Below, in pieces: positions 3,341 through 23,602 of a DNA stretch of 27,295 bases. Numbering within the stretch: position 1 is the first letter of the stretch; each line of letters opens with the position of its first letter. Below the pieces are notes generated by a model. It had not been told where the DNA came from and did no database searches. It saw only the letters and a program-made list of their open reading frames with translations. The DNA lies in contig JAYOYH010000015.1 in NCBI GenBank assembly GCA_038153405.1, forward strand, positions 10,984 to 38,278. Reading direction: 5' to 3'. The DNA comes from Gemmatimonadota bacterium (GTDB lineage: Bacteria; Latescibacterota; UBA2968; UBA8231). The translations under genes and the position numbers were made by a program.

Positions 3341-6300
3341 TCATTTTAGTTGCACGCGTTCGTCGTCTTTGATGGCGGCCTCAAGTTCAGTGCGGAGCTT
3401 TGCCAGGAATGCCTCTACATCTTCTGGGGTCTCGATGAAACCATTTGTCCAGAGGCTTTTGGCCTCTACGATTCGTCGCTTTTTTACTTTCGTCCGCTTT
3501 ATGGGGTCAGGGTTGGGGGGGATTGTTGTCTTCTCTATGGCGAGTAGTGCGCGGTCAAACGCGCCTTCGGCTGTTTGTCGAGCCTGGGCGATGTGTGCAA
3601 TGCTGTTAGACTGGGCAGCCGTCTCAAGCAACTTCTCCAGCTCATTTGTGGCTTCTCTGCGTAGTGTTTCACTGGCATCTCGTGTATTTAGCTCTGCCTT
3701 AACGCTGTCGAGAAAACCTTGAATCACAACGATTGAGGGGCTGCGCGCCTCCGACACCAGTTCGTTATTTGCGCTCTGTGCCGTATGGATGAGATCCGCT
3801 ACTTCGTGCAGCACATTATAAGGGCGAGAAGTCGCGAGAATCTCCACCATACGGGCAAGGGCTGGGCCGGCCGCCTCATGGGTTTCGAGTTGCAGGCCGT
3901 TGGGGGCTAACTCATCTACTGCCGTCCGCAATGACTCCCAAGTGTGCTTCTGGTTGACGTAGAAGCCCTTGAGCTCCTGGATGTCTTCAGCCAGATCCAG
4001 CAATTCGTTTTTGTGCTCGACAAAGCGCTTTAGGAAGCGCAAGGAATCGCTCTCCTCGACGAATTTCCGCAAGCACTCGATACATTCTTCAATCTCGCTC
4101 AATCCAGGATACTTGCCGGTCCTTGCCAGGGGAGCATAGCCGGTGACGTCACTGTTCCATGCCGCGAGTTTGTCTTTTACGAAGCTAAACAACGCTTCCT
4201 CGCTATTGGGTCCCTGCTGGGCAAAGAGCTCTTGGCCGAGTGCTTGCGCCTTCTTGATCAGATCGCCGCCGGCTGACTCGCGCTGGGTGATGACGACCTT
4301 GCGTTGCTTGCTGCTGGCGGTCAGATGGTCGTAGGCCTGGTCCAGTGGCAAAGGAGCTGCGTTGACCAACAAGTTGATCTCGCGGAGCACTGCGAGGCGG
4401 GCTACCAGCAGCACGACCTCGAGCTCGGGCCAACCATAGGGACGACCGCCGTAGCGCTTGTCTATCATATCATAGAGCACGATCTGTTTGCTGGTCTGCG
4501 CGCAGAGGCGGATATAATCTCTCAGGTCGTTGAGTGCCTTGCTATTGGCCTCAGGGGTATCCAGTCCCAGACTCACCTGCTCGACGTCGTCGGCTCGTAA
4601 GGTGCTCTGAATATCGTGCTTGGGGTTGGGATGGAGATATTCGATAAAATCCATCTTGGGGTAGGCGTTCTGGATGAGGTATTCCAGCGCGTCATCTACG
4701 GCGTCTTTGGGATCGGTGCGGGTAATATCGAGCTTCTGGCCGCTGGCAAAGTAGCTGGCGCTTGAGAGCATCGTTTTGAGGCTCGTAACGATGCGGCTGC
4801 GGCGAGCCCGATTCTCTTCGCTGCGGTCGCGGAGGATGCGTTTGGTGGTGTCAGGCAGAGCGGCCGTGTGTTTGGTCTTTACGTAGGACTCGGTCTGTAG
4901 GTAGGTGCGCAGCTCGCGCCCCAGGTTGGCCTCGTCGGGCAGGCGAATGAGCACGCGGGCGGTTTCGAGGTTTGTATGCATACAGCAGTTCTCGTTGCTC
5001 GAAAATTCGCTGTAGCGGTCGCCCAGTGGACTGACGAAGGCGACCTCGAGGCTGCCCTCGAGTATATGGCCGACGGCCTGGTCATCACAGAGGCGGCTAA
5101 AGCTAAAGTCTCGACCGGTTGCGCTGTAGGTGTGCTTGCGGACATCGCCCATGATGTCTTCGAAGAGGAGCTTGCCCAGTTCGCGCTCTTCGGCTCCCGA
5201 AGGTATGGATATATTTTTTATTTCGCGGCCAATATCACGCTCTTCATTCGTGAGGAAAAAATACAGGTCGCCATTACGAGCGATAAGTGTTTCTGCTTCC
5301 AGGCGAGCGAGGGAGGTTTCTATGGTCTTGCGCAGGGCGAGTTTGTCGATGTCGATCTCGTCGATGCACAGGGTTACCAAATTATCGACGCTACCGGGCA
5401 ATTCATCGATATAGCGGATGAGGAAGAGGACCTTTAGCACGGTGGCATCAAAGGTCTGTAGGGCATGGTTGTCGCCCGCTTGATCGATGGTGCGCTTAAC
5501 GCCGGTATCGAGAAAGCCTTCCACCGCTGGATAGAATCGATAGAAGGGGATCAGGACACCGATTTCTTCGCTGCCGAGCTGCTTGGCGGCCCCTTGGAAC
5601 GCATCCAGCGTAGAGCGTTCGCCCTGGGATAGATGTAAGCCGGTAGCACCCGCTTTGCGGATGGATTCGAAGACTTTCTGCACCAGCGTAAACTGGTAGG
5701 CGGCGAAGGGATAACAGGCGGCGAAATCCTCGGCGTCGGCAAAGGTCTTGAACGACATGCCCGCGTTTAGAAAGGAGAGCTGGTTTTTAAGAATATCGTG
5801 CTTGCCCTCGTATGCGGCCGCCAGTGCCGGAATCGTCTCTGTCTTCTTTTCGAGCAGACGCTTCTTAATGACCTCGTCGACGTTATTGCTGGAAAGCGAT
5901 AAGCGCGTTTTAAATCGTCCTTGGATTTTTGAGAAGTCCTGTTGCTTCGTGCTATTGAGATCGCCGAGGACGGCATCGAGGTCTTCCTGAGAGGTGACGA
6001 CGACCCATGCACGGCCTTTGCAGACGGTGCCGAGCTGCTCGGTGATGGTCTGTAGGTTGAGCATGAGATGCGTGTCGTTGCCGATAAACTGGCCTACCTC
6101 GTCCACCAAAAACATAATGCGCTGGTCTTTGCCCTTTGTTTCGAGATATCGCTTCACCCACTTGGCGAAGTTCTCCACGGTTAGGCTGAAATGTTCGGCA
6201 CCGCCATCGACCCATTTTTCGACGGATTCTTCGCTCTGCCCAAGGGCTTCCTTTAGCGCAACGATGACTTCATCCCGATGAAATTCCCAGGCATCGCGCT

Positions 6301-6901
6301 GCTGTAGCCACGGCTCTTTCGCTTCGCGCTCGAAAGCGGCCTGGAAGACGCTGAGCTGTCCCTTCTCGTCGAGGTGGCGTTCCATGTGGGCGATATGCGG
6401 ATGGTCGCCGCTGTATCCCTGTTTTTCGTTCAGGACTTTGAGAAAAACCTGCAACAAGGCGTCGCGCCCCGAACGATGATCGGCTTTGCTATCAATATTG
6501 AAAAGGATTGTGTCGGTGGGGGAGGAGACGACTTTCTTCAGATCTGCAAAGAGCATGGCGTCGGCAAACTTATCGGTGAAGAAATCCACTGCTTGCCGCT
6601 GCTCCCCCTCGAGGGCATGTTCGTTATTTTCGATCAGATAGGAGAGCACTTTAATCAGGTGCGACTTACCGGAGCCGAAGAAGCCAGAGATCCAGATTCC
6701 ATTTTTGTCGGCCGCATCGGCTTCGGATTCTATCGTGGACAGTAGGACCGCCACCAGATCGTTGATATGCTTCGTCAGTTCGCGGGTGACCACGAACTCG
6801 TCGAGCTCTTGCCACACGGACGATGCATCGAGCTGATCGGCTTTGACGACGCCGTTGATGGAGCGATGGATATTGCGCTGGAAAAGGTCTTGGATCTTCA
6901 T
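3341..6901 (-). CDS. brxC: BREX P-loop ATPase BrxC
   Basis: 1186 aa. Walker A GIWISGFFGSGKSH, Walker B MFLVDEVGQFI, plus VVVTSQE, FSKIQGRF, YPF and PYGW motifs typical of BrxC. Lies between brxB and pglX, with an ATGA overlap with brxB. Confidence 0.96.
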   Translation of the reverse strand: MKIQDLFQRNIHRSINGVVKADQLDASSVWQELDEFVVTRELTKHINDLVAVLLSTIESEADAADKNGIWISGFFGSGKSHLIKVLSYLIENNEHALEGEQRQAVDFFTDKFADAMLFADLKKVVSSPTDTILFNIDSKADHRSGRDALLQVFLKVLNEKQGYSGDHPHIAHMERHLDEKGQLSVFQAAFEREAKEPWLQQRDAWEFHRDEVIVALKEALGQSEESVEKWVDGGAEHFSLTVENFAKWVKRYLETKGKDQRIMFLVDEVGQFIGNDTHLMLNLQTITEQLGTVCKGRAWVVVTSQEDLDAVLGDLNSTKQQDFSKIQGRFKTRLSLSSNNVDEVIKKRLLEKKTETIPALAAAYEGKHDILKNQLSFLNAGMSFKTFADAEDFAACYPFAAYQFTLVQKVFESIRKAGATGLHLSQGERSTLDAFQGAAKQLGSEEIGVLIPFYRFYPAVEGFLDTGVKRTIDQAGDNHALQTFDATVLKVLFLIRYIDELPGSVDNLVTLCIDEIDIDKLALRKTIETSLARLEAETLIARNGDLYFFLTNEERDIGREIKNISIPSGAEERELGKLLFEDIMGDVRKHTYSATGRDFSFSRLCDDQAVGHILEGSLEVAFVSPLGDRYSEFSSNENCCMHTNLETARVLIRLPDEANLGRELRTYLQTESYVKTKHTAALPDTTKRILRDRSEENRARRSRIVTSLKTMLSSASYFASGQKLDITRTDPKDAVDDALEYLIQNAYPKMDFIEYLHPNPKHDIQSTLRADDVEQVSLGLDTPEANSKALNDLRDYIRLCAQTSKQIVLYDMIDKRYGGRPYGWPELEVVLLVARLAVLREINLLVNAAPLPLDQAYDHLTASSKQRKVVITQRESAGGDLIKKAQALGQELFAQQGPNSEEALFSFVKDKLAAWNSDVTGYAPLARTGKYPGLSEIEECIECLRKFVEESDSLRFLKRFVEHKNELLDLAEDIQELKGFYVNQKHTWESLRTAVDELAPNGLQLETHEAAGPALARMVEILATSRPYNVLHEVADLIHTAQSANNELVSEARSPSIVVIQGFLDSVKAELNTRDASETLRREATNELEKLLETAAQSNSIAHIAQARQTAEGAFDRALLAIEKTTIPPNPDPIKRTKVKKRRIVEAKSLWTNGFIETPEDVEAFLAKLRTELEAAIKDDERVQLK

Positions 6902-7509
6902 GCTTCCGTCTCTCTGGGAACTAAGATGAAGGCGCGATAGTAGGGCTTGGTGCCGGGTGTAGATGTGTTTGAAGTAATCTGGTCAAACAGGCGAAGCGCG
7001 GTGCCATCAAAGCTACCTGGATAGAATAGTATTAACGGCGTTGTGCCGATGACGGTATGTAGGCAATTCAGCAGGTTGTGGGCTCGGAGCATCGGCCAAA
7101 CGCTGCCGACGCCAGAAAGAAGAAACAGGTCGTAATCAGCCGGGGCATATTTCTCGGCGATAAAGTCGCGGAGTTTCTCGGCCGCGAGTGGCCCCTTTAG
7201 TGCCTGCAATACGGCCGAATCGCCCTTCGTCTCCTGCATTTTGAGCGCCCGGTCGAGCAGGCCGCGCTGTTCGAGGTAATCGAGGATCACTTCAAGTAGG
7301 TTCAGGTGCAGAACGCGTAGCTCGCTATGATGACTCGCCAAGCGGTCCACTATTAAGCGGATATGCGCTCGGACCTGTAGCTCTTCTTGGGCTGGGTAGT
7401 CGAAGATATAACAGGCGATTTCGTTGCCAATGCCTTCGCTGGTGAGAAAGGCCTCGCTGGTGATGCGCGGTATGATTTGATTTAGACGATCAATAAGGGC
7501 TGTGCTCAC
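6898..7509 (-). CDS. brxB: BREX protein BrxB (DUF1788)
   Basis: 203 aa. GIGNEIACYIFDYP, GVGSVWPMLRAH, LFYPGSFDG and YYRAF motifs. GTG start overlaps the brxA stop (GTGA). Confidence 0.93.
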   Translation of the reverse strand: MSTALIDRLNQIIPRITSEAFLTSEGIGNEIACYIFDYPAQEELQVRAHIRLIVDRLASHHSELRVLHLNLLEVILDYLEQRGLLDRALKMQETKGDSAVLQALKGPLAAEKLRDFIAEKYAPADYDLFLLSGVGSVWPMLRAHNLLNCLHTVIGTTPLILFYPGSFDGTALRLFDQITSNTSTPGTKPYYRAFILVPRETEA

Positions 7510-8096
7510 TCGGTGACCTCCATACAGCGCAGGACATACGTTTCTCCACGGCTGCGCAAGCAGGCAGCGAGTTGAGTGTCGACAAATACATTCTGCAACA
7601 AAAGGCTCCGCGTGTCTTTCAGATAGCCGGCTTCAGCCAATATCGAAAACACGGCTGATCGCAACTTGGCCACAGTGGATTCGCTCCAATTGGGCATATC
7701 TGGATCGCGACCACGGCAGCCGGCGATAAACTCATTCCACATGCGATATTCGAGTTTCTTGGCGAAGAGCGCTCGCTGTTCGCGCATCGTTATATCCATA
7801 AAGTCGCCGAGGAGTCGGCTGTTCTTGATCGCGCCGGCCAGGACGGCTTGCGTGGCTTGCTCCTTGCCGCCATCGCGAATGATCTGCCACAGCTCTTCCC
7901 CTAAAGGCTCCAGTCGCGCACGAAGCAGTCGGGAAATCCGCTTGATGGATTCCACGCTATCCATTTGTAACACATTCTGCTCTAAAAGCGCTTCTTTCCA
8001 GGCTGTGCGGTTCGTCCCCTTTAAGAGCAAGTCGGCGACGATGCGGCTTTCGCGAAGCCGGAGTGAGGAACTGGTAATGGTGGCGGTATAGATCAA
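7506..8096 (-). CDS. brxA: BREX protein BrxA (DUF1819)
   Basis: 196 aa. YTATITSSSLRLRESR, NVLQ, SRLLGDFM and WSESTVAKLR...LAEAGYL motifs. First gene of the operon. The start is TTG with no clear Shine-Dalgarno, and an in-frame stop at 8136-8138 limits any upstream extension. Confidence 0.92.
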   Translation of the reverse strand: MIYTATITSSSLRLRESRIVADLLLKGTNRTAWKEALLEQNVLQMDSVESIKRISRLLRARLEPLGEELWQIIRDGGKEQATQAVLAGAIKNSRLLGDFMDITMREQRALFAKKLEYRMWNEFIAGCRGRDPDMPNWSESTVAKLRSAVFSILAEAGYLKDTRSLLLQNVFVDTQLAACLRSRGETYVLRCMEVTE

Positions 8097-8447: not shown

Positions 8448-8492
8448 CATATTATAGTCATAAATGCAATCTCATTAAAAGAGAGATATAAT

Positions 8493-12069: not shown

Positions 12070-15000
12070 ATGCAATTACCTCACTTTCGATTTAGACAAA
12101 ATACAATCTCGATGCTGTCGGCTTACTTCGTCCTGTTTATATCTCTAAGTGTATCAGGACAAGAGCTACCCAAAACTTCTCACACCAAAGATGTAGTTCA
12201 TGGTCTGGAACATCGTCTGGCACAGCTGACTCATAAACCTATCGCCGGAAAATTAGCCGCGCCCTACGCAGGAATAAAATTAAGGGACGATGGCAAGGTC
12301 GTAGTTATTATCGAGCCTTTAGACGGTTCCAGAGCTGCTGATATTGACTCTTTAGGTCTGGTCGCATTGGGCGCAGAAATACTTGCTCAGTCAAAAAGTC
12401 TGATTCGAGCAGCAATCCCAGTCGACCAACTTTTGTCGGCACGCGATGTGACTGGAGTCCAGTTCATACGAACACCATATCATCCTTTAAAAAACAGTGC
12501 CACCTCTGAGGGAGTAGGCCTAATTAACGCTGACAATTATCATCGCAATGGTTTGCTTGGCGCTGGAACAAAGGTGGCTATAATCGATCCGGGATTTACA
12601 AACGCAAACCGTTTATCATCCGATATGCCAGAGACGTGGGAAACGAGAGACTTTACTGAGGATGGCATGTATCGTGGAGGCGTTCACGGATCTGGCTGCG
12701 CGGAAATTGTCTATGACATTGCCCCTAAAGCGGAGCTTCATCTTCTACGCATCGGTGACCTCGTTGATTTAGAAAACGCGAAAGACTACTGTATTGCTCA
12801 CAACATCGATATAGTGAATTACTCAAGCGCTTGGGTGGGAACAGGCTTTGGGGATGGACGCGGGTTTGCATGCGAAATCGTAGACGATGCTGAAGAGAAT
12901 GGAATTCTTTGGGTCAATTCTGCTGGCAATTATGCTCAAAGCCAATATTCAGGTTTTTGGAGCGATGGCAACAGCAACAACCTTCACGATTTTGCTCCAG
13001 GTGATGAGATAATCTCACTGGAGAATGTTACCGCTGGAGATACGGTCGACGTTTGGCTAACATGGAATGAGTGGCCTACTACAGACCAAGACTATGATCT
13101 CTTCCTATACCGCACGGACGGAACAACCTTTGAACGCATTGCTGAAAGCAGCACAACTCAAAGAAACAGCAAACCAGTCGAGAGGGTCGAGCACGTCATT
13201 CAAAGCGATGGGGAATACGGAGTAGCTATATGGAAAGACGAAAATGCTCGCGGCACCGTTGTAAAAGTGTGGTCCGGAAACCATAAGTTATCAGAATTCA
13301 CCTCTCTTATTGGCCATATTGCATCACCAGCCGATGCTCGCGGGGCTTTTGCTGTTGGTGCTGTTGCTCATTTTGATTGGAGCAGGCAACGCATTGCACC
13401 TTACAGTTCGCGCGGTCCAACTGTGGACGGTAGAATTAAGCCAGATATAGTCGCACCAACACAGGTCTCCACAGCCTCTTATCCCTCAGGCTTTGCTGGC
13501 ACCTCAGCTGCGGCTCCGCATGCTGCTGCTGCTGCTGCACTTGTATTATCGGGAAATCCCTCGATGACTCCACGACAGATAGCAGCAGTCCTTACATCAA
13601 ATGCGCGAGATGCAGGTGATCCAGGTGAGGATAACACGTTTGGCTTCGGGTTATTGTCACTACCCAATCCCCCATCCTTCGATACATCACTACATACCGT
13701 CTGGGATGGATGGTGGGAGATTGATCAAGGTAGGATCGAGTCCGAAGACAAAACATGGCAATTTAACTCTTACGGGATAACAGATCGCGACAGCATTGCC
13801 GTAACAGGGATAGTCGTCGCCACTGTCACGAATAAAACACTTTACCCGCTTAACATGTCATATAGTGTGGCTTTTCTTGATTCCAATAATGAGGAAATAG
13901 CCACAAGGTTTGTTCCAGAGGCGCGCTTGCTTACACTCGACGCTGGCGAGAGCAGACAAATTCATGTCGATTTTCTCGGAGTATTTAGTGACCTATCGGC
14001 AGTTGAACGGGTAACCAGAGCGGCCCTATTTGGAGGTTTCAAAATCCAGGCTCCAGAAGCTGCGTTTGAGGCAACACCTATTAGCGGCGACGCTCCACTT
14101 GAAGTTAGATTTACGAACCGATCTACAGGAAAAATAGACGAATACTTATGGGGATTTGGCGATGGGGATATTAGCACTATGGTGAACCCCACGCACACTT
14201 ATAATACGCCCGGAACATATGCAGTGACTCTCACTGCTAAAAATCCGGGTGGTAACGGTCGCGTAGTTCAGGCTATTACAGTTCGGCAAGCAGTTTATAC
14301 GGCTTCCGGACGCGTAACTTTAGCGGGCAAATCAAATCATTCAGGGGTTCGGATTGCGTTTACAAAGGATAGTGGATCGGGCACTATTCCATCATCGGTG
14401 ACTACCAAAATCGATGGGACCTGGTCACAAGACGGCTTTCACCCAGGCACCAGATACAGAGCGACTCCAAGCTTAGGTGGCTGGACATTTAAGCCTTTAA
14501 GCAGACCCATTACACAAGCTGCACCAATCTACAATTTCTTGGGTGAACAAGCCGCGTTCTCTGTATCGGGAAGAGTAACTCTATCGGGTCAATCGACTCA
14601 TTCAGGGGTGCGGATTGCTTTTACCCGCGTGTCTGGTTCTGGAACAATCCCACCTGCTGTCCACACGGCATCAAATGGAACGTGGTCACAAAACGGGTTT
14701 GAACCTGGAACTACATACCGTGCAGCTGTAACAAGTAGTGGGTGGACTTTCACCCCCGCCAGTAGGCAGATCACGCAAGCAGTAACTAATCTTAATTTTC
14801 AAGGCGAGCAAGCGGCCTTTTCCACTTCAGGCCGCATTACTTTAACTGGTCAGTCGAATCATTCTGGCGTAAGGATCGCATTTACCCGTGTATCTGGTTC
14901 AGGCTCAATTCCAAGTGTTGTCAACACTTCGTCGAGTGGGGTTTGGTTTAGAAATGGTTTTGAATCAGGAACAACCTATAGGATAACACCAACGCGGTCA

Positions 15001-16026
15001 GGTTATTCGTTTACACCCGGCAGTCGTGTAGTTACCTCAGGTTCTGGTTCAATGGATTTTACGGGCACTGCGGCTGCCAGCACTGAAACATATACGATTT
15101 CAGGACGAGTAACACTAAATGGTAAAACAAACCATTCAGGTGTAATAGTCAATTTTAGGCGAGTTTCTGGTAGCGGAGCTATTCCGTCGCGTGTTATCAC
15201 ATCAGCAAACGGGTCGTGGACTCGCAGCGGCTTCACAAGGCGATCCACTTATGAAGTTACACCGACTTATTCAGGTTGGACCTTTACACCTGAAAACCGA
15301 ACAGTGATTGGATCAGTCTCAACTCTCAATTTTAGAGGCAGTGAAACGAACCAACATGCAAGCATACCAAGTAGTGGCTTTTACGGGTATGCAGCTCCAT
15401 CAGTTACAGGGCAACCTAAGGTAGCGAGTTTTCAATTCGACACCGAGAAGCAAGACTTGCTGCTATCATGGGAGCTAATTAGCAACGAAGAAAATGCAAT
15501 TAGCATTTGGCTAAATGGTTCATTCTTGTGGAGCATACCAGGCTCATCTACATCTTGGAAGACCTGGTATGGATCAATTCGCAGTAGTAGAATTAGAACC
15601 TCAGGAAACGTATTAGAATTTAGACATGGTCCTAACGCGAATCGAACCACTGGATATGATCGCTGGATGGTGAGAAATGTAAATCTATGGAAAAGCTTCA
15701 ACGCGAAAATTGCCGGTGCTCGGCCAATAGAAAGCCCGCCTCAACAGAAGACGTTCAGCATAGGCCTTCCATATCCATCACCATTTAATTCTACCGTAAC
15801 CATCCCTGTATCCGTAAGCACTTCAGCTACTGCTAACGTCCGTATTATCAACTTACTCGGCCAGCATATCGCAACCCTGCATGATGGCGTCTTAACACCT
15901 GGCCGCCATGCGTTCACCTGGAACACCAAAGATGAAAATGGAACCACTGTCACCACTGGCCTTTACATAGTGATACTACGCTCCGATGATCAATCATTGA
16001 CGAGAAAGCTTGTATTCATGCAGTAA
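12070..16026 (+). CDS. Secreted S8 (subtilisin-family) serine peptidase with PKD domain, four ~87-aa beta-rich repeats and a FlgD-Ig/T9SS-type C-terminal domain
   Basis: GGAG ribosome-binding site at 12061 and a hydrophobic signal-like segment. Catalytic triad motifs KVAIIDPG, HGSGCAE and FAGTSAAAPH; oxyanion-hole NSAGN; SSRGPTVDGRIKPDIVAP. PKD signature WGFGDG...NPTHTYNTPGTYAVTLT. C-terminal PYPSPFNS...NLLGQ...TTGLY...RKLVFMQ. Confidence 0.92.
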   Translation: MQLPHFRFRQNTISMLSAYFVLFISLSVSGQELPKTSHTKDVVHGLEHRLAQLTHKPIAGKLAAPYAGIKLRDDGKVVVIIEPLDGSRAADIDSLGLVALGAEILAQSKSLIRAAIPVDQLLSARDVTGVQFIRTPYHPLKNSATSEGVGLINADNYHRNGLLGAGTKVAIIDPGFTNANRLSSDMPETWETRDFTEDGMYRGGVHGSGCAEIVYDIAPKAELHLLRIGDLVDLENAKDYCIAHNIDIVNYSSAWVGTGFGDGRGFACEIVDDAEENGILWVNSAGNYAQSQYSGFWSDGNSNNLHDFAPGDEIISLENVTAGDTVDVWLTWNEWPTTDQDYDLFLYRTDGTTFERIAESSTTQRNSKPVERVEHVIQSDGEYGVAIWKDENARGTVVKVWSGNHKLSEFTSLIGHIASPADARGAFAVGAVAHFDWSRQRIAPYSSRGPTVDGRIKPDIVAPTQVSTASYPSGFAGTSAAAPHAAAAAALVLSGNPSMTPRQIAAVLTSNARDAGDPGEDNTFGFGLLSLPNPPSFDTSLHTVWDGWWEIDQGRIESEDKTWQFNSYGITDRDSIAVTGIVVATVTNKTLYPLNMSYSVAFLDSNNEEIATRFVPEARLLTLDAGESRQIHVDFLGVFSDLSAVERVTRAALFGGFKIQAPEAAFEATPISGDAPLEVRFTNRSTGKIDEYLWGFGDGDISTMVNPTHTYNTPGTYAVTLTAKNPGGNGRVVQAITVRQAVYTASGRVTLAGKSNHSGVRIAFTKDSGSGTIPSSVTTKIDGTWSQDGFHPGTRYRATPSLGGWTFKPLSRPITQAAPIYNFLGEQAAFSVSGRVTLSGQSTHSGVRIAFTRVSGSGTIPPAVHTASNGTWSQNGFEPGTTYRAAVTSSGWTFTPASRQITQAVTNLNFQGEQAAFSTSGRITLTGQSNHSGVRIAFTRVSGSGSIPSVVNTSSSGVWFRNGFESGTTYRITPTRSGYSFTPGSRVVTSGSGSMDFTGTAAASTETYTISGRVTLNGKTNHSGVIVNFRRVSGSGAIPSRVITSANGSWTRSGFTRRSTYEVTPTYSGWTFTPENRTVIGSVSTLNFRGSETNQHASIPSSGFYGYAAPSVTGQPKVASFQFDTEKQDLLLSWELISNEENAISIWLNGSFLWSIPGSSTSWKTWYGSIRSSRIRTSGNVLEFRHGPNANRTTGYDRWMVRNVNLWKSFNAKIAGARPIESPPQQKTFSIGLPYPSPFNSTVTIPVSVSTSATANVRIINLLGQHIATLHDGVLTPGRHAFTWNTKDENGTTVTTGLYIVILRSDDQSLTRKLVFMQ
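14296..15345 (+). repeat. Four tandem 87-91 aa coding repeats (SGRVTL.G.S.HSGV.I.F...SGSG.IP..V.T...G.W...GF....Y..TP...G.TF.P)
   Basis: Repeat starts at 14296, 14557, 14818 and 15091 (periods 261, 261 and 273 nt). The end coordinate is approximate. Confidence 0.9.
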
Positions 16027-16129
16027 AGTCGTAGGATGTTTAATCGAGATCGAACAACGGCATCGATCATTCTGGATTTCAGAACGGTGATAAGATACAA
16101 AATTCAATTTCAAGCTGAACAGGTTTAAA

Positions 16130-17617
16130 ATGTCTGATTTGCAAGGCAGATACATAGGTTGTCTACTCGGTCTATCTACAGGGGACGCGCTGGGGACGAC
16201 CTTAGAGTTTAAACCGCCCGGCACATTTACTCCTATAGATGATATGGTGGGCGGCGGACCATTCCAGCTAAAGCCCGGTCAGTGGACTGACGATACTTCG
16301 ATGGCGCTGTGTCTTGCTGAGAGCCTGATCAAATGCTGCGAGATGGACGCAAAGGATCAGATGGACCGCTATCTGCGTTGGTGGAAGGATGGCTATCTGA
16401 GTAGCACGGGAAGCTGCTTTGATATTGGCATTACGGTCCGTAACGCGCTCGCACACTATCAGCACATGGGCGAGCCCCTCGCGGGTTCGACGGACCCCCA
16501 AACGGCGGGGAATGGTTCTATCATGCGCCTGGCTCCTGTGCCACTTTTTTTTGCTGCTAATCCCGAAGACGCTATTTACCAGGCCGGGGAAAGCTCAAAG
16601 ACTACGCATGGCACGGCAGAAGCCGTGGATGGCTGTCGTTTACTTGCGGCTTTGATTGTCGGCGCTGTCCAGGCACGAACAAAGGAAGAGCTGTGCGCGC
16701 CGATGTTTTGTCCGGTATCGGGCCTGTGGAGTCGCGAGCCCTTATCGCCGAAAATTGCTGCAATTGCATCGGGTTCCTATAAAGACAAATCGCCGCCGGC
16801 GATTCGGGGGACGGGGTATGTAGTGGAATCCTTGGAAGCTGCGCTGTGGGCTTTTTACAATAGCACCAGTTTCAAAGAGGGCGCGCTGTTGGCGGTTAAT
16901 TTGGGCGACGACGCCGATACTACGGGGGCAGTATACGGTCAATTGGCCGGGGCGTATTATGGCACGGAGGGCATGCCCGAGGAATGGAAAGAAGTTGTCG
17001 CAAGCCGATCTCAAATTGAGGAGACGGCCATGCAGTTGCTGCATCCAGGCGACCGGCTGGCCCCAGAGGAGATAGTGCCCAATGTGCCTTTCGATCGCTC
17101 ATATTGGGTGGAGCCCGGCCGCTTGTTAGCTGGTTACTATCCCGGTGACGTCACCAAGAAAGATGCGCAAGAGAAACTGGATGCACTGGTCGATGCGGGG
17201 ATACGCTGCTTTATCAACCTGACAGAGGAAGATGAGAAAAGCACGGCAGGGAGCTTGGTGCGGTCTTACCAGCAGCTTCTTTTCGAACGCGCAGCCGCCC
17301 ACAATGTTAAGGTCAACTATCTGCGCATTCCGATCCGTGATCTCGGTATCCCATCCGAGCAGAATCTTATACACATCCTCAACACCATAGACTGGTCGAT
17401 TGAACACGATATGCCGGTTTATGTGCATTGTCGTGGGGGGATCGGCCGCACCGGCACGGTGGTCGGCTGTTATCTGGCGCGGCACGGTATCGCCACGGGA
17501 GCGGCTGTGATGGGGCACATCGCCGACCTCCGTCGCAGAGATGCTTGGGCAGATGTCGAATCTCCTGAGGCGCAAGAGCAGAAGACGCTGGTGTGCGCGT
17601 GGAAGCGAGGGCGGTGA
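16130..17617 (+). CDS. ADP-ribosylglycohydrolase (DraG/ARH family) fused to a C-terminal CX5R dual-specificity/tyrosine phosphatase domain
   Basis: Residues ~1-305 carry GDALG, WTDDT, GNGSIMR, THG and GDDADTTGAVYGQLAGA (ARH metal-binding motifs intact). Residues ~320-495 carry YWVEPGRLLAGYYP, IPIRDLGIP (general-acid loop) and the P-loop VHCRGGIGRTG (HCRGGIGRTG at 17426-17455). Confidence 0.93.
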   Translation: MSDLQGRYIGCLLGLSTGDALGTTLEFKPPGTFTPIDDMVGGGPFQLKPGQWTDDTSMALCLAESLIKCCEMDAKDQMDRYLRWWKDGYLSSTGSCFDIGITVRNALAHYQHMGEPLAGSTDPQTAGNGSIMRLAPVPLFFAANPEDAIYQAGESSKTTHGTAEAVDGCRLLAALIVGAVQARTKEELCAPMFCPVSGLWSREPLSPKIAAIASGSYKDKSPPAIRGTGYVVESLEAALWAFYNSTSFKEGALLAVNLGDDADTTGAVYGQLAGAYYGTEGMPEEWKEVVASRSQIEETAMQLLHPGDRLAPEEIVPNVPFDRSYWVEPGRLLAGYYPGDVTKKDAQEKLDALVDAGIRCFINLTEEDEKSTAGSLVRSYQQLLFERAAAHNVKVNYLRIPIRDLGIPSEQNLIHILNTIDWSIEHDMPVYVHCRGGIGRTGTVVGCYLARHGIATGAAVMGHIADLRRRDAWADVESPEAQEQKTLVCAWKRGR

Positions 17618-20600
17618 TTGGCTGATCTCGCGTCAGGCGTCTACGATGATATCGTAGACCTGTGTCTAAAGGAGGGCATTGACGGGCTGCAGGAGAAGCA
17701 TCTTCGCGCTCACCTGAGCGACGTCGACCCTGCGGATATCCCACAACGCATTGCCGGAATCATCGCGATCTGGGTCGCCCGGGCCTTGTCTGATCTTCCA
17801 GAAAAAGAGCGCACTGCCGGGGCCATCGAGCTAACGAAGCGTCTTTTGGACTTAGTTCGCGAAGTCTCACCTCAAGGGATCGACGCGGGAGATGGGCTGG
17901 CCATTCCGCTCAGGCGGCTGACGGCCATAGAAACCGTGGCACCCGATGGGAATACGCAGTCGATAGGGCGACCGCTGACGCCATTGCGGGACTCCGTGCT
18001 CATGACCAATGCGCGGGGCGAGCCGGGGGTGGGGCGTGAGCTCGCCGCCGAGGTCGAGTCGGCTGAGCGCATTGATGTAGTGTGTGCCTTCATTCGGTGG
18101 ACGGGCATTCGCGAGATGTTGCCGGCGTTACGCCGGCACGTGGCTTCGGGGCGCGTCCTGCGAATTATCACGACGGTGTATACGGGCACGACCGAGTTGC
18201 GGGCACTTGAGGCCCTGCAAGAGCTGGGAGCCCAGCTGCGCATTTCCTACGATATATCGAAGACCCGCCTGCACGCTAAAGCGTGGTTGTTTCACCGGTC
18301 CAACGGCCATTCTTCGGTCTATATTGGCTCATCTAACCTGACCTATTCGGCCCAGGTGACCGGGCTGGAATGGAATGTTCGTGCGTCACAGAAGGCCACC
18401 CCGACTGTGGTCGAAAAGTTTGAGGCGACGTTCGCCTCCTACTGGGCGAATGCACAGTTTGAGGATTTCGATCGCGATCGCTTCCTCAGGGCTATAGAGC
18501 GGGACGCGGGTGAGGTGATCGACCTGACGCCATTCGATATTGAGCCCTATCCCTTTCAGCGGCAAATGCTCGAGCAACTGCAAGTAGAGCGGTCGCGTGG
18601 CCGGCCGAACAATTTGGTTGTTGCTGCCACGGGAACGGGTAAGACGATATTGGCTGGCTTGGACTACAGAGCACTCCGGGAGTCGATGCCCCGTTCGCGG
18701 CTGCTCTTTATCGCCCACCGGCGAGAAATCCTCGAGCAGAGTAGGACCACTTTTCGCCATATCCTCAGAGATGGTGCGTTTGGTGAGTTGTGGGTAGCCG
18801 GGAAGCGACCGCAACACTGGGACCATGTATTTGCATCAATCCAGACACTGCATCGCAGTGAGTTGTCCCATGTCGCAGTCGGCCATTTCGACGTCGTCAT
18901 TGTCGATGAGTTTCACCATGCCGCCGCCGATTCCTACGAGGCCGTGCTGAGCTATCTGCAGCCGCAGTATTTGTTGGGGTTAACGGCCACACCAGAGCGC
19001 GCGGATGGCAAAGATATTCAACAATGGTTCGGGGGACGGACAGCCGTTGAACTACGACTATGGGATGCGTTGGAGCAGGAACTGCTCTCGCCATTTCACT
19101 ACTTCGGTATTCATGACGGCACCGATCTGAGCGGACTCACCTGGCGGCGAGGGGCGGGATATGATGTAGGCGAGCTTACCAATATTTATACGGCCAATGA
19201 CATGTGGGCCGCGATGGTGCTGCAGGCGGTGCAGGATAAGGTGGGGTCGCCGCATCTGATGAAGGCACTGGGATTCTGTGTCAGTATAGCCCACGCGCGA
19301 TTTATGGCGAAGAAGTTCGAGGCGGCCGGTTTGAAGGCAGTCGCAGTAACGTCGGCTACTTCTGCAACTGAACGAGACAACGCGTTGTCGGGGCTGCGCG
19401 ACGGTCAGCTGCAGGTGTTGTTTACGGTCGACCTATTTAACGAAGGGGTGGACATACCTGCTATAGATACCGTGCTGATGCTGCGCCCGACTGAGAGTGC
19501 CACGATTTTCCTACAGCAACTGGGACGAGGCCTGCGTCGAACGCACGGCAAAGACGTGTTGACCGTCCTCGACTTCGTCGGTCATCAGCGGGCAGAGTTT
19601 CGCTTCGATTTGCGCTATCGACGGCTTTTAGGGCGAAGTCGGAAGGAACTGGAGTCCGATATCGAGCAGGGCTTCCCCTATTTGCCGGCCGGATGCCATT
19701 TGGAGCTGGACCCGGTGGCCAGTCGTATTGTGTTGGCCAATATCAAGGCATCGCTGCCATCGACGTGGAGGCGGCGCGTAGAAGAACTGCGTGAACTCGG
19801 CGATGTGACGTTGCAAGCATATCTCGAAGAAACCAACCTCGACCTCGAAGACCTTTACCGGAACCGCCGCTACTGGACGCAGCTTAGGAGAGCGGCCGGC
19901 CACATATCTGCGGAATTGCTCGATGGCGAAGGAAAATTCGGACCGGGATTGGGAAGATTGGCGCACATCGACGACGAAGAGCGACTCAGATTTCTGCGTG
20001 CGCTGTTGGCCGACGGGCAGCGACCTATAGTTAAAAGCTTTGACCTTCGCGCATCGCGCCAACTTCACATGGTCTTATTGACCATACTGAACCCGAGGAA
20101 AGGCATTTACAATACACTTCAGGAAGGAGTCGATGCGTTGTGGGCCCATGCCCAGTTGATAGCTGAGGGGAGAGATTTACTGGATGCATTGGACGATCAC
20201 GTTGTGCACTTACAGCAGCCCTTAGTAGACTTGGGCGATATACCGCTGTGGGTCCATGCCCACTATACGCGAGACGAGATACTCGCGTCCTTTGGCATCG
20301 CCACGGTGATAGCGCCGCATCCGTTGCAGGCGGGTGTCTATTGGCACGAGCAAACTAAGACGGATTTGCTTTTTGTGACGTTGCAGAAGGCTGAAAAGGA
20401 CTTTTCACCGACGACGCGCTATAAGGATTACGCTATCAGCGAAACCCTATTTCACTGGGAAAGCCAGTCGACGACATCGCAGGACAGTGAAACGGGACAG
20501 CGATATTTGCACCATCGCGAGAAGGGGACACGGGTCCTGCTTTTTGTGCGCACCAGTAAGACGGATGGAGCTGGTCGGACGCTGCCGTATTTCTGTGCCG

Positions 20601-20713
20601 GTTTTGCCAACTACGTCAGTCATGAGTCCGATCGGCCGATAGCGATTACCTGGGAATTGGAAGTGCCGTTGCCTGGGGATCGGTTCGTTGAGTATCGGGC
20701 CGCAGTGGCATAG
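17618..20713 (+). CDS. SauUSI-like PLD nuclease + SF2 helicase + DUF3427 protein (putative type IV, modification-dependent restriction enzyme)
   Basis: PLD motif LHAKAW...YIGSSNLT. Walker A AATGTGKT, motif II DEFHH, motif III TATPER, LFNEGVDIP, motif VI QQLGRGLR. C-terminal DUF3427-type FVTLQK...YKDYAISETLFHWESQS...LFVR. The TTG start directly follows the TGA of the ARH gene, with GAGG upstream. Confidence 0.9.
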   Translation: MADLASGVYDDIVDLCLKEGIDGLQEKHLRAHLSDVDPADIPQRIAGIIAIWVARALSDLPEKERTAGAIELTKRLLDLVREVSPQGIDAGDGLAIPLRRLTAIETVAPDGNTQSIGRPLTPLRDSVLMTNARGEPGVGRELAAEVESAERIDVVCAFIRWTGIREMLPALRRHVASGRVLRIITTVYTGTTELRALEALQELGAQLRISYDISKTRLHAKAWLFHRSNGHSSVYIGSSNLTYSAQVTGLEWNVRASQKATPTVVEKFEATFASYWANAQFEDFDRDRFLRAIERDAGEVIDLTPFDIEPYPFQRQMLEQLQVERSRGRPNNLVVAATGTGKTILAGLDYRALRESMPRSRLLFIAHRREILEQSRTTFRHILRDGAFGELWVAGKRPQHWDHVFASIQTLHRSELSHVAVGHFDVVIVDEFHHAAADSYEAVLSYLQPQYLLGLTATPERADGKDIQQWFGGRTAVELRLWDALEQELLSPFHYFGIHDGTDLSGLTWRRGAGYDVGELTNIYTANDMWAAMVLQAVQDKVGSPHLMKALGFCVSIAHARFMAKKFEAAGLKAVAVTSATSATERDNALSGLRDGQLQVLFTVDLFNEGVDIPAIDTVLMLRPTESATIFLQQLGRGLRRTHGKDVLTVLDFVGHQRAEFRFDLRYRRLLGRSRKELESDIEQGFPYLPAGCHLELDPVASRIVLANIKASLPSTWRRRVEELRELGDVTLQAYLEETNLDLEDLYRNRRYWTQLRRAAGHISAELLDGEGKFGPGLGRLAHIDDEERLRFLRALLADGQRPIVKSFDLRASRQLHMVLLTILNPRKGIYNTLQEGVDALWAHAQLIAEGRDLLDALDDHVVHLQQPLVDLGDIPLWVHAHYTRDEILASFGIATVIAPHPLQAGVYWHEQTKTDLLFVTLQKAEKDFSPTTRYKDYAISETLFHWESQSTTSQDSETGQRYLHHREKGTRVLLFVRTSKTDGAGRTLPYFCAGFANYVSHESDRPIAITWELEVPLPGDRFVEYRAAVA

Positions 20714-20797
20714 ACGCCAATCTGATCCATGAAAACCGAAATTTGTTTATCGCTATTGTCAACTTAATAAATGACGTTACGCCCGTAGAGCCGCCAT

Positions 20798-21745
20798 ATG
20801 CAACATAGTAAGCAGCACTATGTGCCCAAGAGCTACCTTGAGTCGTGGTGTGATCCGGACTGCCCGGAGCAGATGGAACCTTATGTCTGGACTTTCAACG
20901 AGGACGGCAGCAGTAGCAAGAAGAAGGCTCCAAAAAATATCTTTTACGAGAAGGACATGTATACCATAAAGGGCAAGGACGGGGAGCGCGATTTGAGCAT
21001 CGAACATTCCCTCTCCAGCCTTGAGGGGGCCTTCACTGGCATCCGCGATAATAAGCTCGCCAAGCGGAAGATACTCGAACCTGAGGAGCAGCTCATCGTC
21101 TGTGCTTTCATAGCAGCCATGAAGGCTCGGAGCGCCAGCCATCGGGATCACTGGCAAAACCAATGGGGAAACGTTCTTGGAAAAATGGAACACATGAACG
21201 AACAGTTTAACAAAATGCCAGTTGAGCAGCGGAAGAAATTGACCTCACTGACGCCTCCCAGGCTCCCAGGCGACCCAGCCCCCATGACCATGAGGGACAT
21301 GCGCGAGCTATCCACGTCACATTTACAGATAAACCTTATGTCTGAAATCGGGATGATGTCTCACGCTTTCATGAGTCTGGATATGGCCATATTCAACACC
21401 GATGGGCAACCAGGCTTTATTACCTCAGATGATCCTTGCGTTTTTTATGACCCTGAAATACATAAGCTACCGCGCTGGATGCAGACCCCGCATCTTGGTA
21501 GTGCAACGATTGAGATCGGCCTACCAATCTCGCCAAGTCAATATATCCTTCTAAACAGGCAGGGTATCAACGGCCATATAGATATGCAAGAGTCCTTACT
21601 TGCGGAGGAACTCAATAAGCGCACTCGTTTCAGCGCCTACAAGGAGTTCGTCGTATCGCAGGACGTGGCTAAGGATGAATGGTTCGATACAAGCATCCCA
21701 CCTGAAGAGAGCGAGGACTCCGGTCAGACAAATGAGACCAGATAG
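20798..21745 (+). CDS. DUF4238 domain protein (family includes a single-gene anti-phage system)
   Basis: N-terminal QHYVPKSYL, NIFYEKDMY, IEHSLSSLE, FITSDDP and LPISP are the usual DUF4238 signature motifs. Confidence 0.85.
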   Translation: MQHSKQHYVPKSYLESWCDPDCPEQMEPYVWTFNEDGSSSKKKAPKNIFYEKDMYTIKGKDGERDLSIEHSLSSLEGAFTGIRDNKLAKRKILEPEEQLIVCAFIAAMKARSASHRDHWQNQWGNVLGKMEHMNEQFNKMPVEQRKKLTSLTPPRLPGDPAPMTMRDMRELSTSHLQINLMSEIGMMSHAFMSLDMAIFNTDGQPGFITSDDPCVFYDPEIHKLPRWMQTPHLGSATIEIGLPISPSQYILLNRQGINGHIDMQESLLAEELNKRTRFSAYKEFVVSQDVAKDEWFDTSIPPEESEDSGQTNETR

Positions 21746-21868
21746 TTTGACAGACCCCCTTGAACCTACACATTGGGCCTTTAGAATCAGCTTATCAAGA
21801 AGGGAATACCAATGAGTCGCTATGCACTCTCACTTTGAGTAGACCAACGCGTATCCTACAGGAATTTC

Positions 21869-22375
21869 ATGAAATCAGATAGCTTCAGAAGACTCGTGGA
21901 TTTTTATCAACTGCTTTGTAAGGAACATCCCAGCGAGCGGGTCCTTGAACAATTTTCCAAGTATATAAGAGATTGGTCTGCAAACCAGAAGTCGGAAGAC
22001 ATTGAATATGTTAAGTGTGAGTTGCCATTTCTATTTGATAGGGGTCAAAGCGGGGGCAGGTGCAGGACGTCCGACGCAAAAAGAGACCTTCAAAGACTCT
22101 TCCATATATATCATTTGCTTTGCATAGACCGACCGCGCGATCAAAGGGTTATGGCAATATTCGAAGACATTGTTGAAGATGAATACGAATCTCTGACCAT
22201 AGAGGAACGCGTTTTCTGCGAGGGTGGATTTTCCCAGTTCCAACAACTGAAAGCGTTTACGCCTGCGGAATTTTGGCAATGGGATATGATACGGAGGAAA
22301 GAGAATAGTCAGCGCATGGAACAATTAGAGCACCGGTTAAAGGGAAGCAAAAATGAGACTTCGTCTGATGACTGA
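21869..22375 (+). CDS. Hypothetical helical protein with an internal duplication
   Basis: 168 aa with AGGA upstream of the ATG. Two copies of RLxxxYxLLCxxxP(x2-3)RVxxxF support it being real coding sequence. Confidence 0.72.
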   Translation: MKSDSFRRLVDFYQLLCKEHPSERVLEQFSKYIRDWSANQKSEDIEYVKCELPFLFDRGQSGGRCRTSDAKRDLQRLFHIYHLLCIDRPRDQRVMAIFEDIVEDEYESLTIEERVFCEGGFSQFQQLKAFTPAEFWQWDMIRRKENSQRMEQLEHRLKGSKNETSSDD

Positions 22376-22469
22376 AGGTGCGGTGTTGCCGTCTTTAGAA
22401 ATATAAGACGTGCAGCCGCTTGCAAGCGAAGAGCCAGAATAGAGGCGTTGCGTCATCCAGAGGGTATAG

Positions 22470-22790
22470 ACTGAAACCGGTCAGCACCGGGAAGCAGGAC
22501 GAACCAAAGGTTTTCCGCGTCACTTTTTCAACTTTTTGCATAAACTCGGTGCCGGACAAGGTCTTCCTTTCGGCTTAGAGCACGGCTTCCTTAACGGTGC
22601 ACATCGACAGTTAGTTATTGATCGCAGGGAAGTTCTGGATATGATGGATGCACTGTTTAGCCAGCGGAATAGTTACGCCCACGGGAAAGTGCGCAGCTCT
22701 TCAGATGAGAGCGCCTGTGGTAGGGCAATGGATCATAGGAGGCAAAGCCAGCAGGTGCTACAGTTATTGACCGAACTTAAAAACTCCTAA
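22470..22790 (+). pseudogene. Probable remnant of a HEPN-domain gene
   Basis: The frame is open from 22470 to 22790 but is preceded by in-frame TAG stops (22467-22469, 22440-22442) and has no well-supported start or ribosome-binding site. It contains LFSQRNSYAHG, an RxxxxH HEPN-type motif at 22665-22682 in a helical context. Confidence 0.42.
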
Positions 22791-22901
22791 TCTATCGTCA
22801 TTGAGATCTTCTATTTTTTGGTATCATATTGATGCGAAATAATACATAGATATTGGGCATGAATAACTGTATTGGAAACGTGTTTTTGTTGCACATATTT
22901 C

Positions 22902-22930
22902 TTGCTTTCGAGATTGATTATTCGTAGTTT
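22902..22930 (+). promoter_or_regulatory. Candidate sigma70 promoter
   Basis: TTGCTT (22902-22907), 17-nt spacer, TAGTTT (22925-22930) in an AT-rich region. A second extended -10 candidate, TGgTATCAT, is at 22819-22827. Confidence 0.45.
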
Positions 22931-22994
22931 ATAAACAAGCAAAAGTGGTGATTTGCGGTCTATTGCCGCCACTCAAAATAAGGTGCTAAAAAAG

Positions 22995-23089
22995 CCACCC
23001 GAACGAATTTAACCCGGGCCTTTGGCTCGGGTTTTTTCTTTTTGGCCCTGGTGCGCACTTAGCTGCCAGGGTCTTTTTCGTTTGGGTGG
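22995..23089 (+). ncRNA. Candidate structured RNA (three-way junction containing two terminator-like hairpins)
   Basis: A 13-bp outer stem (22995-23007/23077-23089) encloses a 10-bp hairpin (23011-23033) with a U-tract and an 8-bp-or-longer hairpin (23044-23073) with a U-tract. Each stem has a G-U pair that works only on the + strand. Confidence 0.5.
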
Positions 23090-23123
23090 GGCCGCCTCAC
23101 GTTATACCGAGAGGAGCCTCAAA

Positions 23124-23477
23124 ATGAGCTCGATACTCCCACCCAACGTCATCGACTTTGTCGACGTAATCAACCAGAAAGCAAAGGGTGATCCTCCTGC
23201 TTGCTATATGGTAAACGGTTCCAGAGAGTCGCAGAAAAGTGCCGCCATTGTGCGACCCAAGGATGACAAGCAGGACACCTCGAGAGGAAAGAAGACGAAG
23301 TTCGAACGTATGAGAGAAATCTGCAAGGAAACGGGCGGCATATTCGCCAACGACTTTCCCGATCACCCGATCTGGAAGGAAGGATATACCATCACCTTTG
23401 GTGGCAGGACATCTCGTTTACGTGAAACGGATGCCGCTTCTGACAGCAGCGAGACGTCCCACGACAGCACCGACTGA
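23124..23477 (+). CDS. Hypothetical protein (117 aa)
   Basis: Strong Shine-Dalgarno GAGGAG at 23111-23116 before ATG 23124 (MSSILPPNVIDF). The track's TTG start at 23022 lies inside the hairpin region and is unlikely. Confidence 0.6.
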   Translation: MSSILPPNVIDFVDVINQKAKGDPPACYMVNGSRESQKSAAIVRPKDDKQDTSRGKKTKFERMREICKETGGIFANDFPDHPIWKEGYTITFGGRTSRLRETDAASDSSETSHDSTD

Positions 23478-23602
23478 AGAGCCGAGCTAATCGGATAGAC
23501 AGTTGTTGTCGAGCTGACTGAGAAGACGCCACGCCAGCAGTCTTATATCGGTAACCCGATCACATTCAGACAAACAAAAAACAAATCGCATAAGAGGACA
23601 TC

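Follow-up and report, generated by a model that had tools for sequence, protein, structure and literature searches.

An ADP-ribosylglycohydrolase-phosphatase fusion abutting a SauUSI-like helicase-nuclease: probably independent genes of defence type stacked within a mosaic island

The three-gene row and its surroundings

The window, the whole stretch of DNA that was analyzed (27,295 nucleotides, from a Gemmatimonadota bacterium), holds three adjacent genes on the forward strand. The first (16130-17617) encodes a 495-aa protein in which an ADP-ribosylglycohydrolase (ARH) domain is fused to a CX5R phosphatase domain, the second (17618-20713) a 1031-aa protein combining a PLD nuclease, an SF2 helicase and a DUF3427 domain, and the third (20798-21745) a 315-aa DUF4238 protein. 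The fusion gene ends with TGA at 17615-17617 and the helicase gene starts with TTG at 17618-17620, with zero gap and in the same frame. A Shine-Dalgarno-like GAGGG at 17607-17611, lying within the fusion gene and 6 nt ahead of this TTG, completes a junction (17607..17620, forward strand) that can be read from the sequence. Between the helicase stop at 20713 and the DUF4238 start at 20798 there are 84 nt. This arrangement, with the Shine-Dalgarno inside the upstream gene and DUF4238 following on the same strand, had been described in an earlier note on this DNA and is confirmed here. The abutting TTG and the internal GAGGG suggest translational coupling of the fusion and the helicase; a scan for promoters and terminators gave counts at chance level (4 vs 4.2 and 7 vs 5.2).

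A gapless junction with TGA and TTG in one frame could also mark a single protein of 1527 aa, whether a nonsense change has split it or the stop codon is read through. We reject this reading as highly improbable. In alignments the fusion and helicase ORFs both terminate at the ends of their respective homologues, and therefore represent two genes rather than one broken gene. Furthermore, the TTG is preceded by a separate Shine-Dalgarno, and no such fusions occur among relatives, with DUF3427 or PLD domains in 0 of 102 longer ARH fusion proteins and ARH in none of the 120 best helicase matches.

The domain calls and the defence-island setting of the earlier note are supported. On the reverse strand lie brxA, brxB and brxC of a BREX system (3341..8096; Pfam and PADLOC BrxA/BrxB/BrxC matches), which the earlier note had tentatively linked to the three-gene row. 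We reject a functional link to BREX: these genes are on the opposite strand and 8 kb upstream of the row, two large secreted-protein genes separate them from the fusion, and brxA/B/C were found in none of the 233 comparison loci. The gene upstream of the fusion, 103 nt away, encodes an S8 protease. An Atlas search with the 259-aa orphan gave scores all under 0.9.

The ARH-phosphatase fusion

The DraG/Tri1-like ARH domain (aa 1-305; 16130..17044, forward strand) matches PF03747 over aa 10-285 (Pfam, E 2.9e-79). By sequence it also matches the solved structures 2CWC from Thermus (E 1.1e-74) and Tri1 6DRE (E 5.9e-72), and an AlphaFold2 model that includes it (mean pLDDT 91) recovers Tri1 as the best Foldseek matches, at 2.1 Å rmsd. 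Its fold and active-site acids are common to both Serratia proteamaculans Tri1 (40% identity) and the DraG ADP-ribosylarginine hydrolases. However, it scores below the NCBIfam cut-offs for both (327 against 490 bits for Tri1, 153 against 337 bits for DraG) and lacks the N-terminal extension of Tri1, the alignment beginning at Tri1 residue 72. Also in contrast to these proteins, it has no cognate transferase adjoining and carries a phosphatase fused on. This phosphatase, a dual-specificity/PTP-type domain (PTP-SAK / Tc-R-P; aa ~316-495, 17075..17617, forward strand), matches PF22785 (E 4.8e-20) and PF22784 (E 3.5e-19), both above cut-off in Pfam, and follows a linker (aa 308-316) that is disordered in the AlphaFold2 model (pLDDT < 50). 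In keeping with the earlier claim of intact catalytic motifs, the ARH residues T53-D54-D55, D98, H160 and D261/D263/T264, with an intact metal-binding site, and the phosphatase residues D404, H433-C434-x5-R440 and Q484 are invariant across 36 aligned fusions (alignment A1). Genome contigs were searched for the fusion by an alignment scan, the single-protein scan having given no matches; among 166 plasmid records with a match to the fusion, none covers 80% of it. Partners in the 102 longer ARH fusions include GmrSD, SNF2, Sir2/TPR, TIR, NADAR and others, as well as EcoEI_R_C.

Modules combining ARG with a rhodanese/PTP-type phosphatase, with variable nuclease or helicase partners, have been predicted to reverse phage ADP-ribosylation (Iyer, Burroughs, Anantharaman, Aravind 2022, PMC9503650 section 3.8), and the fusion would represent the core of such a conflict module. 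In that study, which presents the ARG-centred systems as prediction only, a phosphatase, mostly of the rhodanese-phosphatase superfamily, is found in over 55% of the ARG-centred neighbourhoods. A Nudix or WYL repressor, a chaperone and an ARPP gene are frequent, not universal (repressor 42%), and the listed nucleases are of the REase fold. The window resembles these systems in uniting ARH and a CX5R domain of the rhodanese-phosphatase superfamily in one polypeptide, in the nuclease/helicase gene that follows the fusion, and in having no ADP-ribosyltransferase or sirtuin gene coupled to the ARH (Pfam, 14 window ORFs); a diverged transferase is conceivable because four small downstream ORFs have no family. 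Unlike many of them, the locus has by Pfam neither a repressor of the Nudix or WYL kind nor a chaperone or ARPP gene. We found no mention of DUF3427, PLD, HKD or DUF4238 in the main text or supplement text of PMC9503650 (the image of Figure 7 being outside this scope), and our literature search returned no experimental test of the predicted host reversal of phage ADP-ribosylation by ARG modules. The suggestion of the earlier note that phage ADP-ribosylation might be undone by the fusion is supported as an idea, but had already been published as a prediction. As a putative mechanism, the ARH domain would hydrolyze arginine-linked ADP-ribose put on host proteins in general by phage or competitor transferases, and the CX5R domain would likely strip a terminal phosphate, either off the product so released or off targets that carry phosphate.

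An alternative is that the fusion has no role against phages, and is an island passenger serving either as orphan immunity to interbacterial ADP-ribosylating toxins or in general repair of ADP-ribosylated and phosphorylated nucleic-acid ends. Its closest solved structure, Tri1, confers immunity to the toxin Tre1 (PMC8120803), an ARH-like Streptomyces enzyme has been reported to act on RNA and DNA, taking ADP-ribose off their phosphate ends (PMC11833690), and 27 of 40 linked ARH-phosphatase loci have no gene specific to defence within 2.5 kb. We nevertheless regard this as unlikely, given the differences from Tri1 in N-terminal extension and score and the presence of a defence or WYL gene near 13 of the 40 linked loci, a count that has no background control. 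The tally of defence neighbours leaves out PADLOC matches to generic ATPases, UvrD or proteases (L025, L055, L070, L222, L226, L227).

The SauUSI-like enzyme and the DUF4238 gene

The 1031-aa protein displays a ~125-aa N-terminal extension followed by a PLD nuclease, an SF2 ATPase and a DUF3427/SRA-like target-recognition domain, with Pfam matches to PLDc_2, ResIII, Helicase_C and DUF3427 (E 2.3e-21). The PADLOC run called for in the earlier note assigns it to mREase_IV (PDLC03659; 925.6 bits, model positions 15-942 of 945). It is also matched by 7CLG (E 1.6e-83), the structure of SauUSI, a type IV restriction endonuclease of S. aureus (PMC3141236, PMC7913695), and is 33% identical to an S. 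aureus homologue over 557 columns. PLD, SF2 and DUF3427 follow one another in identical order in SauUSI, which lacks the extra N-terminal segment, and the sequence places the protein in the SauUSI family of type IV restriction enzymes. The catalytic residues H119/K121/N139/E150 of SauUSI correspond to H219/K221/N240/E251, which are invariant in 40/40 helicases together with Walker A K342 and DEFH 430-433. The catalytic motifs are intact with one departure, the acid E126 of the SauUSI HxK(x4)E motif being replaced by H226. Four of the six SRA pocket residues of SauUSI are kept (F841, I842, D858 and W868 as F919, V920, D937 and W947), whereas M829/Y831 of its 5-methylcytosine pocket appear as A905/V907, in an uncertain register with a two-residue insertion. 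As two pocket residues differ, specificity for 5-methylcytosine is not certain. By analogy to its family, the enzyme would bind a modified base through the C-terminal domain, translocate by means of the ATPase and cut with a dimeric PLD nuclease, all without a partner; SauUSI is active as a single polypeptide (PMC3874153). No companion methyltransferase was detected among the flanking ORFs from 16130 to 24822 with Pfam, PADLOC or NCBIfam. The usual upstream gene of SauUSI is a MutT/Nudix gene, in place of which the window helicase has the ARH-phosphatase gene. The linkage of SauUSI-type genes to Nudix genes, mentioned in the earlier note, has been reported (PMC3141236) and is seen here in four Nudix neighbours of helicase relatives. 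Plasmid matches to the helicase number 26, including one S. aureus record.

The DUF4238 protein matches PF14022 at full length (Pfam, E 2.6e-34; aa 5-288, model 1-278 of 281) and was matched by no PADLOC model. A DUF4238 protein of the P2 hotspot has been described as a single-gene anti-T7 system that works alone (Rousset et al. 2022, PMC9122126). The window likewise has a single gene with PF14022. It is likely to be an independent passenger and a third single-gene defence, and DUF4238 was present in 0 of the 233 comparison loci.

Conservation of the pairing

Among 88 loci of helicase relatives (80 from metagenomes, 63 of them with at least 600 nt of upstream sequence, and 8 from the phylum of the window), none has a CX5R phosphatase and one, L133, has an ARH, in the form of NrtR and a distant ARH 433 nt downstream. 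Where context is available, the helicases closest to that of the window couple equally tightly to other upstream genes: that of L122 (77% identity) has an HNH nuclease gene 12 nt upstream, and that of L116 (65% identity) is overlapped by 8 nt by an upstream gene of no known type. Conversely, a helicase homologue occurs in two of 145 ARH/phosphatase loci, which include 47 with both domains linked. L224 has a true homologue 6.7 kb away, and L044 a distant PLD-SF2 helicase, without a DUF3427/TRD match, 53 nt from a phosphatase-ARH fusion, which makes it the one case of an adjacent helicase among the 47 linked loci. Two in 145 is more than random expectation, such a helicase being present in 8 of the 168 phylum genomes, although clustering in defence islands can explain the excess. 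None of the four fusion loci seen in context with the ARH-then-phosphatase order of the window, a set that excludes the closest relatives at 60-63% identity, has a helicase homologue, and the junction pattern had no matches in metagenome contigs. One genome (G116) has both genes, on different contigs and with other neighbours.

Sequencing runs were evaluated through contigs that bridge the window or depart from it; missing cover at DUF4238 or at the helicase (X5, X7, X8 and X9) was disregarded, and the X16 contig, which crosses the junction by 15 nt only, was excluded from the counts. An X9 contig bridges the junction and is identical to the window. An X7 contig, from another study, bridges it across 17400-18264 with 69 differences in 865 nt (~92% identical), and this variant departs from the window at the helicase stop, with different DNA and no DUF4238 downstream. 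As it keeps the junction and differs after the helicase, the pair stayed together while the downstream neighbour changed. The earlier note had treated an adjacency confined to this genome as fatal to its proposal; taken literally the adjacency is not so confined, because the diverged variant in X7 has the junction too. We did not recover the pairing beyond this variant, and the dedicated ARH-phosphatase, SauUSI-like and DUF4238 system that the note envisaged is not supported. An X8 contig has a near-identical ARH-phosphatase end, then 38 nt of helicase and then 231 unlike letters; this is one contig, at depth 5.4, for which insertion or mis-assembly is possible.

The three intact genes, each of a defence type, are probably independent of one another and stacked in a mosaic island, not parts of one machine; the fusion and the helicase are likely separate because other bacteria almost never have them side by side. 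The tight junction likely arose when one gene joined the transcript of the other, the two-gene block having since been inherited within a narrow lineage. An alternative that we hold improbable is a young, lineage-restricted cassette, in which the fusion would protect the restriction enzyme translated with it, clearing phage-added ADP-ribose or phosphate from this enzyme or from the DNA ends on which it acts; this is the idea of the earlier note narrowed to a single clade. It is consistent with the abutting genes and internal Shine-Dalgarno, the retention of the junction in X7 despite a different downstream neighbour, and L044 as a second, independent PLD-SF2 helicase next to a phosphatase-ARH fusion. 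Fusions of ARH domains to further proteins of restriction or helicase type, GmrSD and EcoEI_R_C among them, also fit, as does the reported ADP-ribosylation of the defence nuclease MazF by T4 Alt (PMC8120803). Against it stand the locus counts given above, the equally tight coupling of the closest helicases to other genes and the X8 contig that leaves the helicase after 38 nt. The version in which an estuarine/marine-lineage cassette has a bifunctional eraser, co-translated with a type IV restriction enzyme, that keeps this enzyme active against phage ADP-ribosyltransferases and kinases is in our estimate no less doubtful. Were it true, ARH domains, attached to many unrelated restriction/helicase proteins, would have a general 'bodyguard' role of which this is one instance, and the cassette would supply the first tested case of a host countering protein modification by phages.

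As a system the combination adds little, each gene being of a described kind and the combination not being conserved. The 495-aa fusion itself is a compact, intact, two-active-site example of the module for which reversal of phage ADP-ribosylation was predicted in 2022, and with T4 alt/modA/modB and T7 0.7 mutants it makes host reversal of phage-made protein modifications directly testable. It is convenient rather than unique for this purpose because many equivalent fusions exist, 119 of its 120 best matches having both domains.

Architecture and active sites of the three genes

Re-reading of the coordinates from the sequence placed the three open reading frames exactly where the earlier note had them. 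The first, at 16130-17617 of the forward strand, encodes a 495-aa protein in which Pfam recognizes an ADP-ribosylhydrolase (ARH) and a CX5R phosphatase of the PTP-SAK/Tc-R-P type. Its TGA stop codon (17615-17617) directly precedes the TTG start codon (17618) of a 1031-aa SauUSI-like helicase (17618-20713) with PLD, ResIII, Helicase_C and DUF3427 domains, and GAGGG stands at 17607-17611 of the same strand. The third gene, with a DUF4238 product (Pfam), begins 84 nt beyond the helicase stop codon (20798-21745, forward strand). The first two genes lie in one shared frame and each stops at the end point of its homologues; among the 7994 best-sharing candidates scored, none of the 102 longer ARH proteins bears DUF3427 or PLD.

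The catalytic motifs of both proteins are intact, as had been claimed. In alignment with 35 full-length relatives, T53, D54, D55, D98, H160, D261, D263, T264, D404, H433, C434, R440 and Q484 of the fusion are invariant, and in its AlphaFold2 model (mean pLDDT 91) a disordered linker joins two domains, with Tri1 and a Thermus ARH as the best structural matches. Likewise, H219, K221, N240, E251, K342 and the DEFH motif are invariant among 40 aligned helicases. The helicase also has an N-terminal extension (residues 1-125; 17618-17995) that is not found in SauUSI and is kept in its own clade, with G7, D10, W52 and R65 invariant in 40 of 40.

Neighbourhoods of the homologues

The earlier note had put forward the fusion, the helicase and DUF4238 as a new defence system. 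They are plausible defence genes and each belongs to a known or already predicted kind; as a conserved unit the proposed system is not supported. The helicase side comprised the best 80 of at least 527 confirmed relatives from an alignment-based scan of metagenome contigs; these 80 fall into 71 clusters at 90% DNA identity, with at least 600 nt of flank upstream in 63 and downstream in 57. Probed with HMMs made from the ARH and phosphatase halves of the fusion, these 80 loci yielded no phosphatase and one distant ARH (L133), located behind an NrtR gene 433 nt past the helicase gene; eight extra loci from the window's phylum added neither, leaving the phosphatase at 0 of 88. Immediate same-strand neighbours, for which 47 of 65 were scanned with Pfam, include four Nudix, four MazG and two HNH genes besides several helicases and assorted housekeeping genes. 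Among the matches listed, the closest helicase that has context (L122, 77%) is preceded at 12 nt by an HNH nuclease gene, and another (L116, 65%) is overlapped by 8 nt by an unknown gene; thus, the ARH fusion is not the only kind of upstream gene that sits tightly against the helicase. In several actinobacterial-type contigs a MazG gene (92-98 aa) lies within about 35 nt downstream of the DUF3427 helicase (L129, L134-L137, L181), occupying the place of the Nudix partner.

The ARH side comprised 145 loci (2.02 Mb), a subset chosen as best-scoring or two-domain matches: the best 80 of at least 597 in genome contigs, 10 from the window's relatives, and sets of 20, 20 and 15 picked by hand in three phyla, out of 401-genome samples taken around a Desulfomonilaceae, a Dehalococcoidia and an Acidimicrobiia genome. 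In 47 of the loci the ARH and the phosphatase are fused or stand side by side, two of these loci (L233 and L237) being 97% alike. A helicase homologue occurs in two of the 145, and in none of the four fusions whose ARH precedes the phosphatase as in the window (L202, L203, L225, L243). In L224 a true DUF3427 helicase lies 6.7 kb off with six ORFs intervening. In L044, from a Desulfobacteraceae, the homologue ends 53 nt ahead of a phosphatase-ARH fusion; it is 38% identical across the nuclease-ATPase part and gave no DUF3427 or target-domain match. Neither DUF4238 nor brxA/B/C was found in any of the 233 comparison loci.

PADLOC, run on 120 of the 165 ORFs next to 40 linked loci, made specific defence or WYL matches at 13 of these loci in a raw, uncontrolled count; the matches are diverse (type II R-M, AbiE, SoFic, NERD-UvrD, E1-E2 and PDC-S01, with WYL at three). 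ARH or ARH-phosphatase units are also fused to TPR arrays with Sir2, GmrSD, Lhr-like and SNF2 helicases, EcoEI_R_C and TIR_2 (proteins P0342-P0344, P0346, P0354, P0382, P0387, P0392, P0345), which may reflect a general tie of ARH to defence effectors. The L044 island (661-12170) encodes an SF1 helicase-REase, a small methyltransferase, the PLD-SF2 helicase, the phosphatase-ARH fusion and a DUF4062-HATPase; by eye, the PLD-SF2 helicase has a pyrophosphohydrolase-like N-terminus, and its C-terminus is not DUF3427. DUF6508 is fused to phosphatase-ARH proteins at L079:7941-9872 and L093:57-2063, an ORF just upstream of the L203 fusion (6254-7018) resembles it by eye, and it may be an unlisted component of the ARG-centred anti-ADP-ribosylation systems predicted by Iyer et al. 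(PMC9503650). A genome from the window's family carries ARPP-1 fused to the same CX5R phosphatase (L018:140-1807), as expected for those systems.

A further reading, which we regard as improbable, is that fusion and helicase form a lineage-restricted guard cassette. L044, as a second instance of similar genes adjoining, speaks for it, and two of 145 exceeds random expectation, given how rare such a helicase is in the window's phylum (8 of 168 genomes). The refuting case named in the earlier note, an adjacency found only in this genome, does not hold literally: a contig from another study (run X7) covers 17400-18264 and carries 69 differences over its 865 nt, so a diverged variant retains the junction. 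A second X7 contig departs from the window at the helicase stop codon, and DUF4238 therefore does not follow the helicase there; the pair is thus not limited to the window's assembly and has outlasted its downstream neighbour. On the other side, a phosphatase-end-then-helicase-start pattern that matches the window, with 30 nt of play per gap, hit no metagenome contig, the window's own records possibly being excluded. A contig from run X8 (depth 5.4) has a near-identical ARH-phosphatase end and 38 nt of helicase followed by 231 unlike letters, a single-contig hint against fixed pairing.

Predicted functions and earlier descriptions

Beyond the observed sequences, domains, motifs, fold and neighbour counts, family knowledge suggests that the helicase would work alone as a modification-dependent restriction enzyme. 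Excerpts of PMC3874153 describe SauUSI as sufficient as one polypeptide, and residues mutated in the SauUSI catalytic mutants (excerpts of PMC3141236) correspond to conserved positions here. Of six SauUSI pocket residues (excerpts of PMC7913695) four are kept, whereas M829 and Y831 appear to be A905 and V907, so the recognized base may differ from that of SauUSI. Arginine-ADP-ribose is the likely substrate of the ARH domain, being what Tri1 and DraG, its closest relatives of solved structure, hydrolyse (excerpts of PMC8120803). No transferase lies beside the fusion, and its substrate is thus likely of external origin, made by Alt/Mod-type enzymes of phages or by toxins of competitors. The phosphatase would likely take a terminal phosphate off the released product or off phosphorylated targets; the T7 0.7 protein is a protein kinase.

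The fusion has the core features of the ARG-centred systems, but their optional repressor and chaperone are missing at the window locus. A term search of the PMC9503650 main text and 1.74 million characters of supplement text, exclusive of figures, gave no DUF3427, HKD, PLD or DUF4238; 2023 work on this phosphatase superfamily may list more contexts. In the literature searched we found no paper describing the ARH-phosphatase/helicase pair or testing the predicted ARG-phosphatase module. DUF4238 is presented in part of PMC9122126 as a single-gene anti-T7 system.

Genomic setting

Third-position G+C is 0.60, 0.64 and 0.61 in the fusion, helicase and DUF4238 genes; it drops to 0.39-0.46 in the genes on either side, and 359 long ORFs have a median of 0.70 (genome G+C 59.4%), contrasts that mark the region as a mosaic. 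Neither ARH nor helicase was found in seven genomes of the window's genus (73-98% complete), and the nearest named helicase relatives (78%) are in bins labelled Latescibacterota, Gemmatimonadota or Rhodospirillaceae. Past DUF4238 the island continues with four forward-strand ORFs (21869-22375, 23022-23477, 23603-24382, 24529-24822) that have no family in Pfam, PADLOC or NCBIfam; the two measured have a G+C of 0.42-0.44, and the 259-aa product has weak Atlas look-alikes only.

By Pfam and PADLOC, brxA, brxB and brxC (3341-8096, reverse strand) lie 8 kb upstream of the fusion on the opposite strand. Between them and the fusion stand two forward-strand genes for large, low-G+C secreted-type proteins (Pfam), one with Ig/cadherin repeats and dockerin-like and C-terminal sorting domains (8493-11876), the other an S8 protease with PKD and sorting domains (12070-16026). 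The BREX locus also takes in 1-3330 of the window, extending as a whole over 5210-19079 of the contig (G000:C15). Three further long ORFs upstream (1163, 871 and 684 aa), whose starts resemble pglX, pglZ and brxL, are presumably these genes, and a 279-aa gene sits between the first two.
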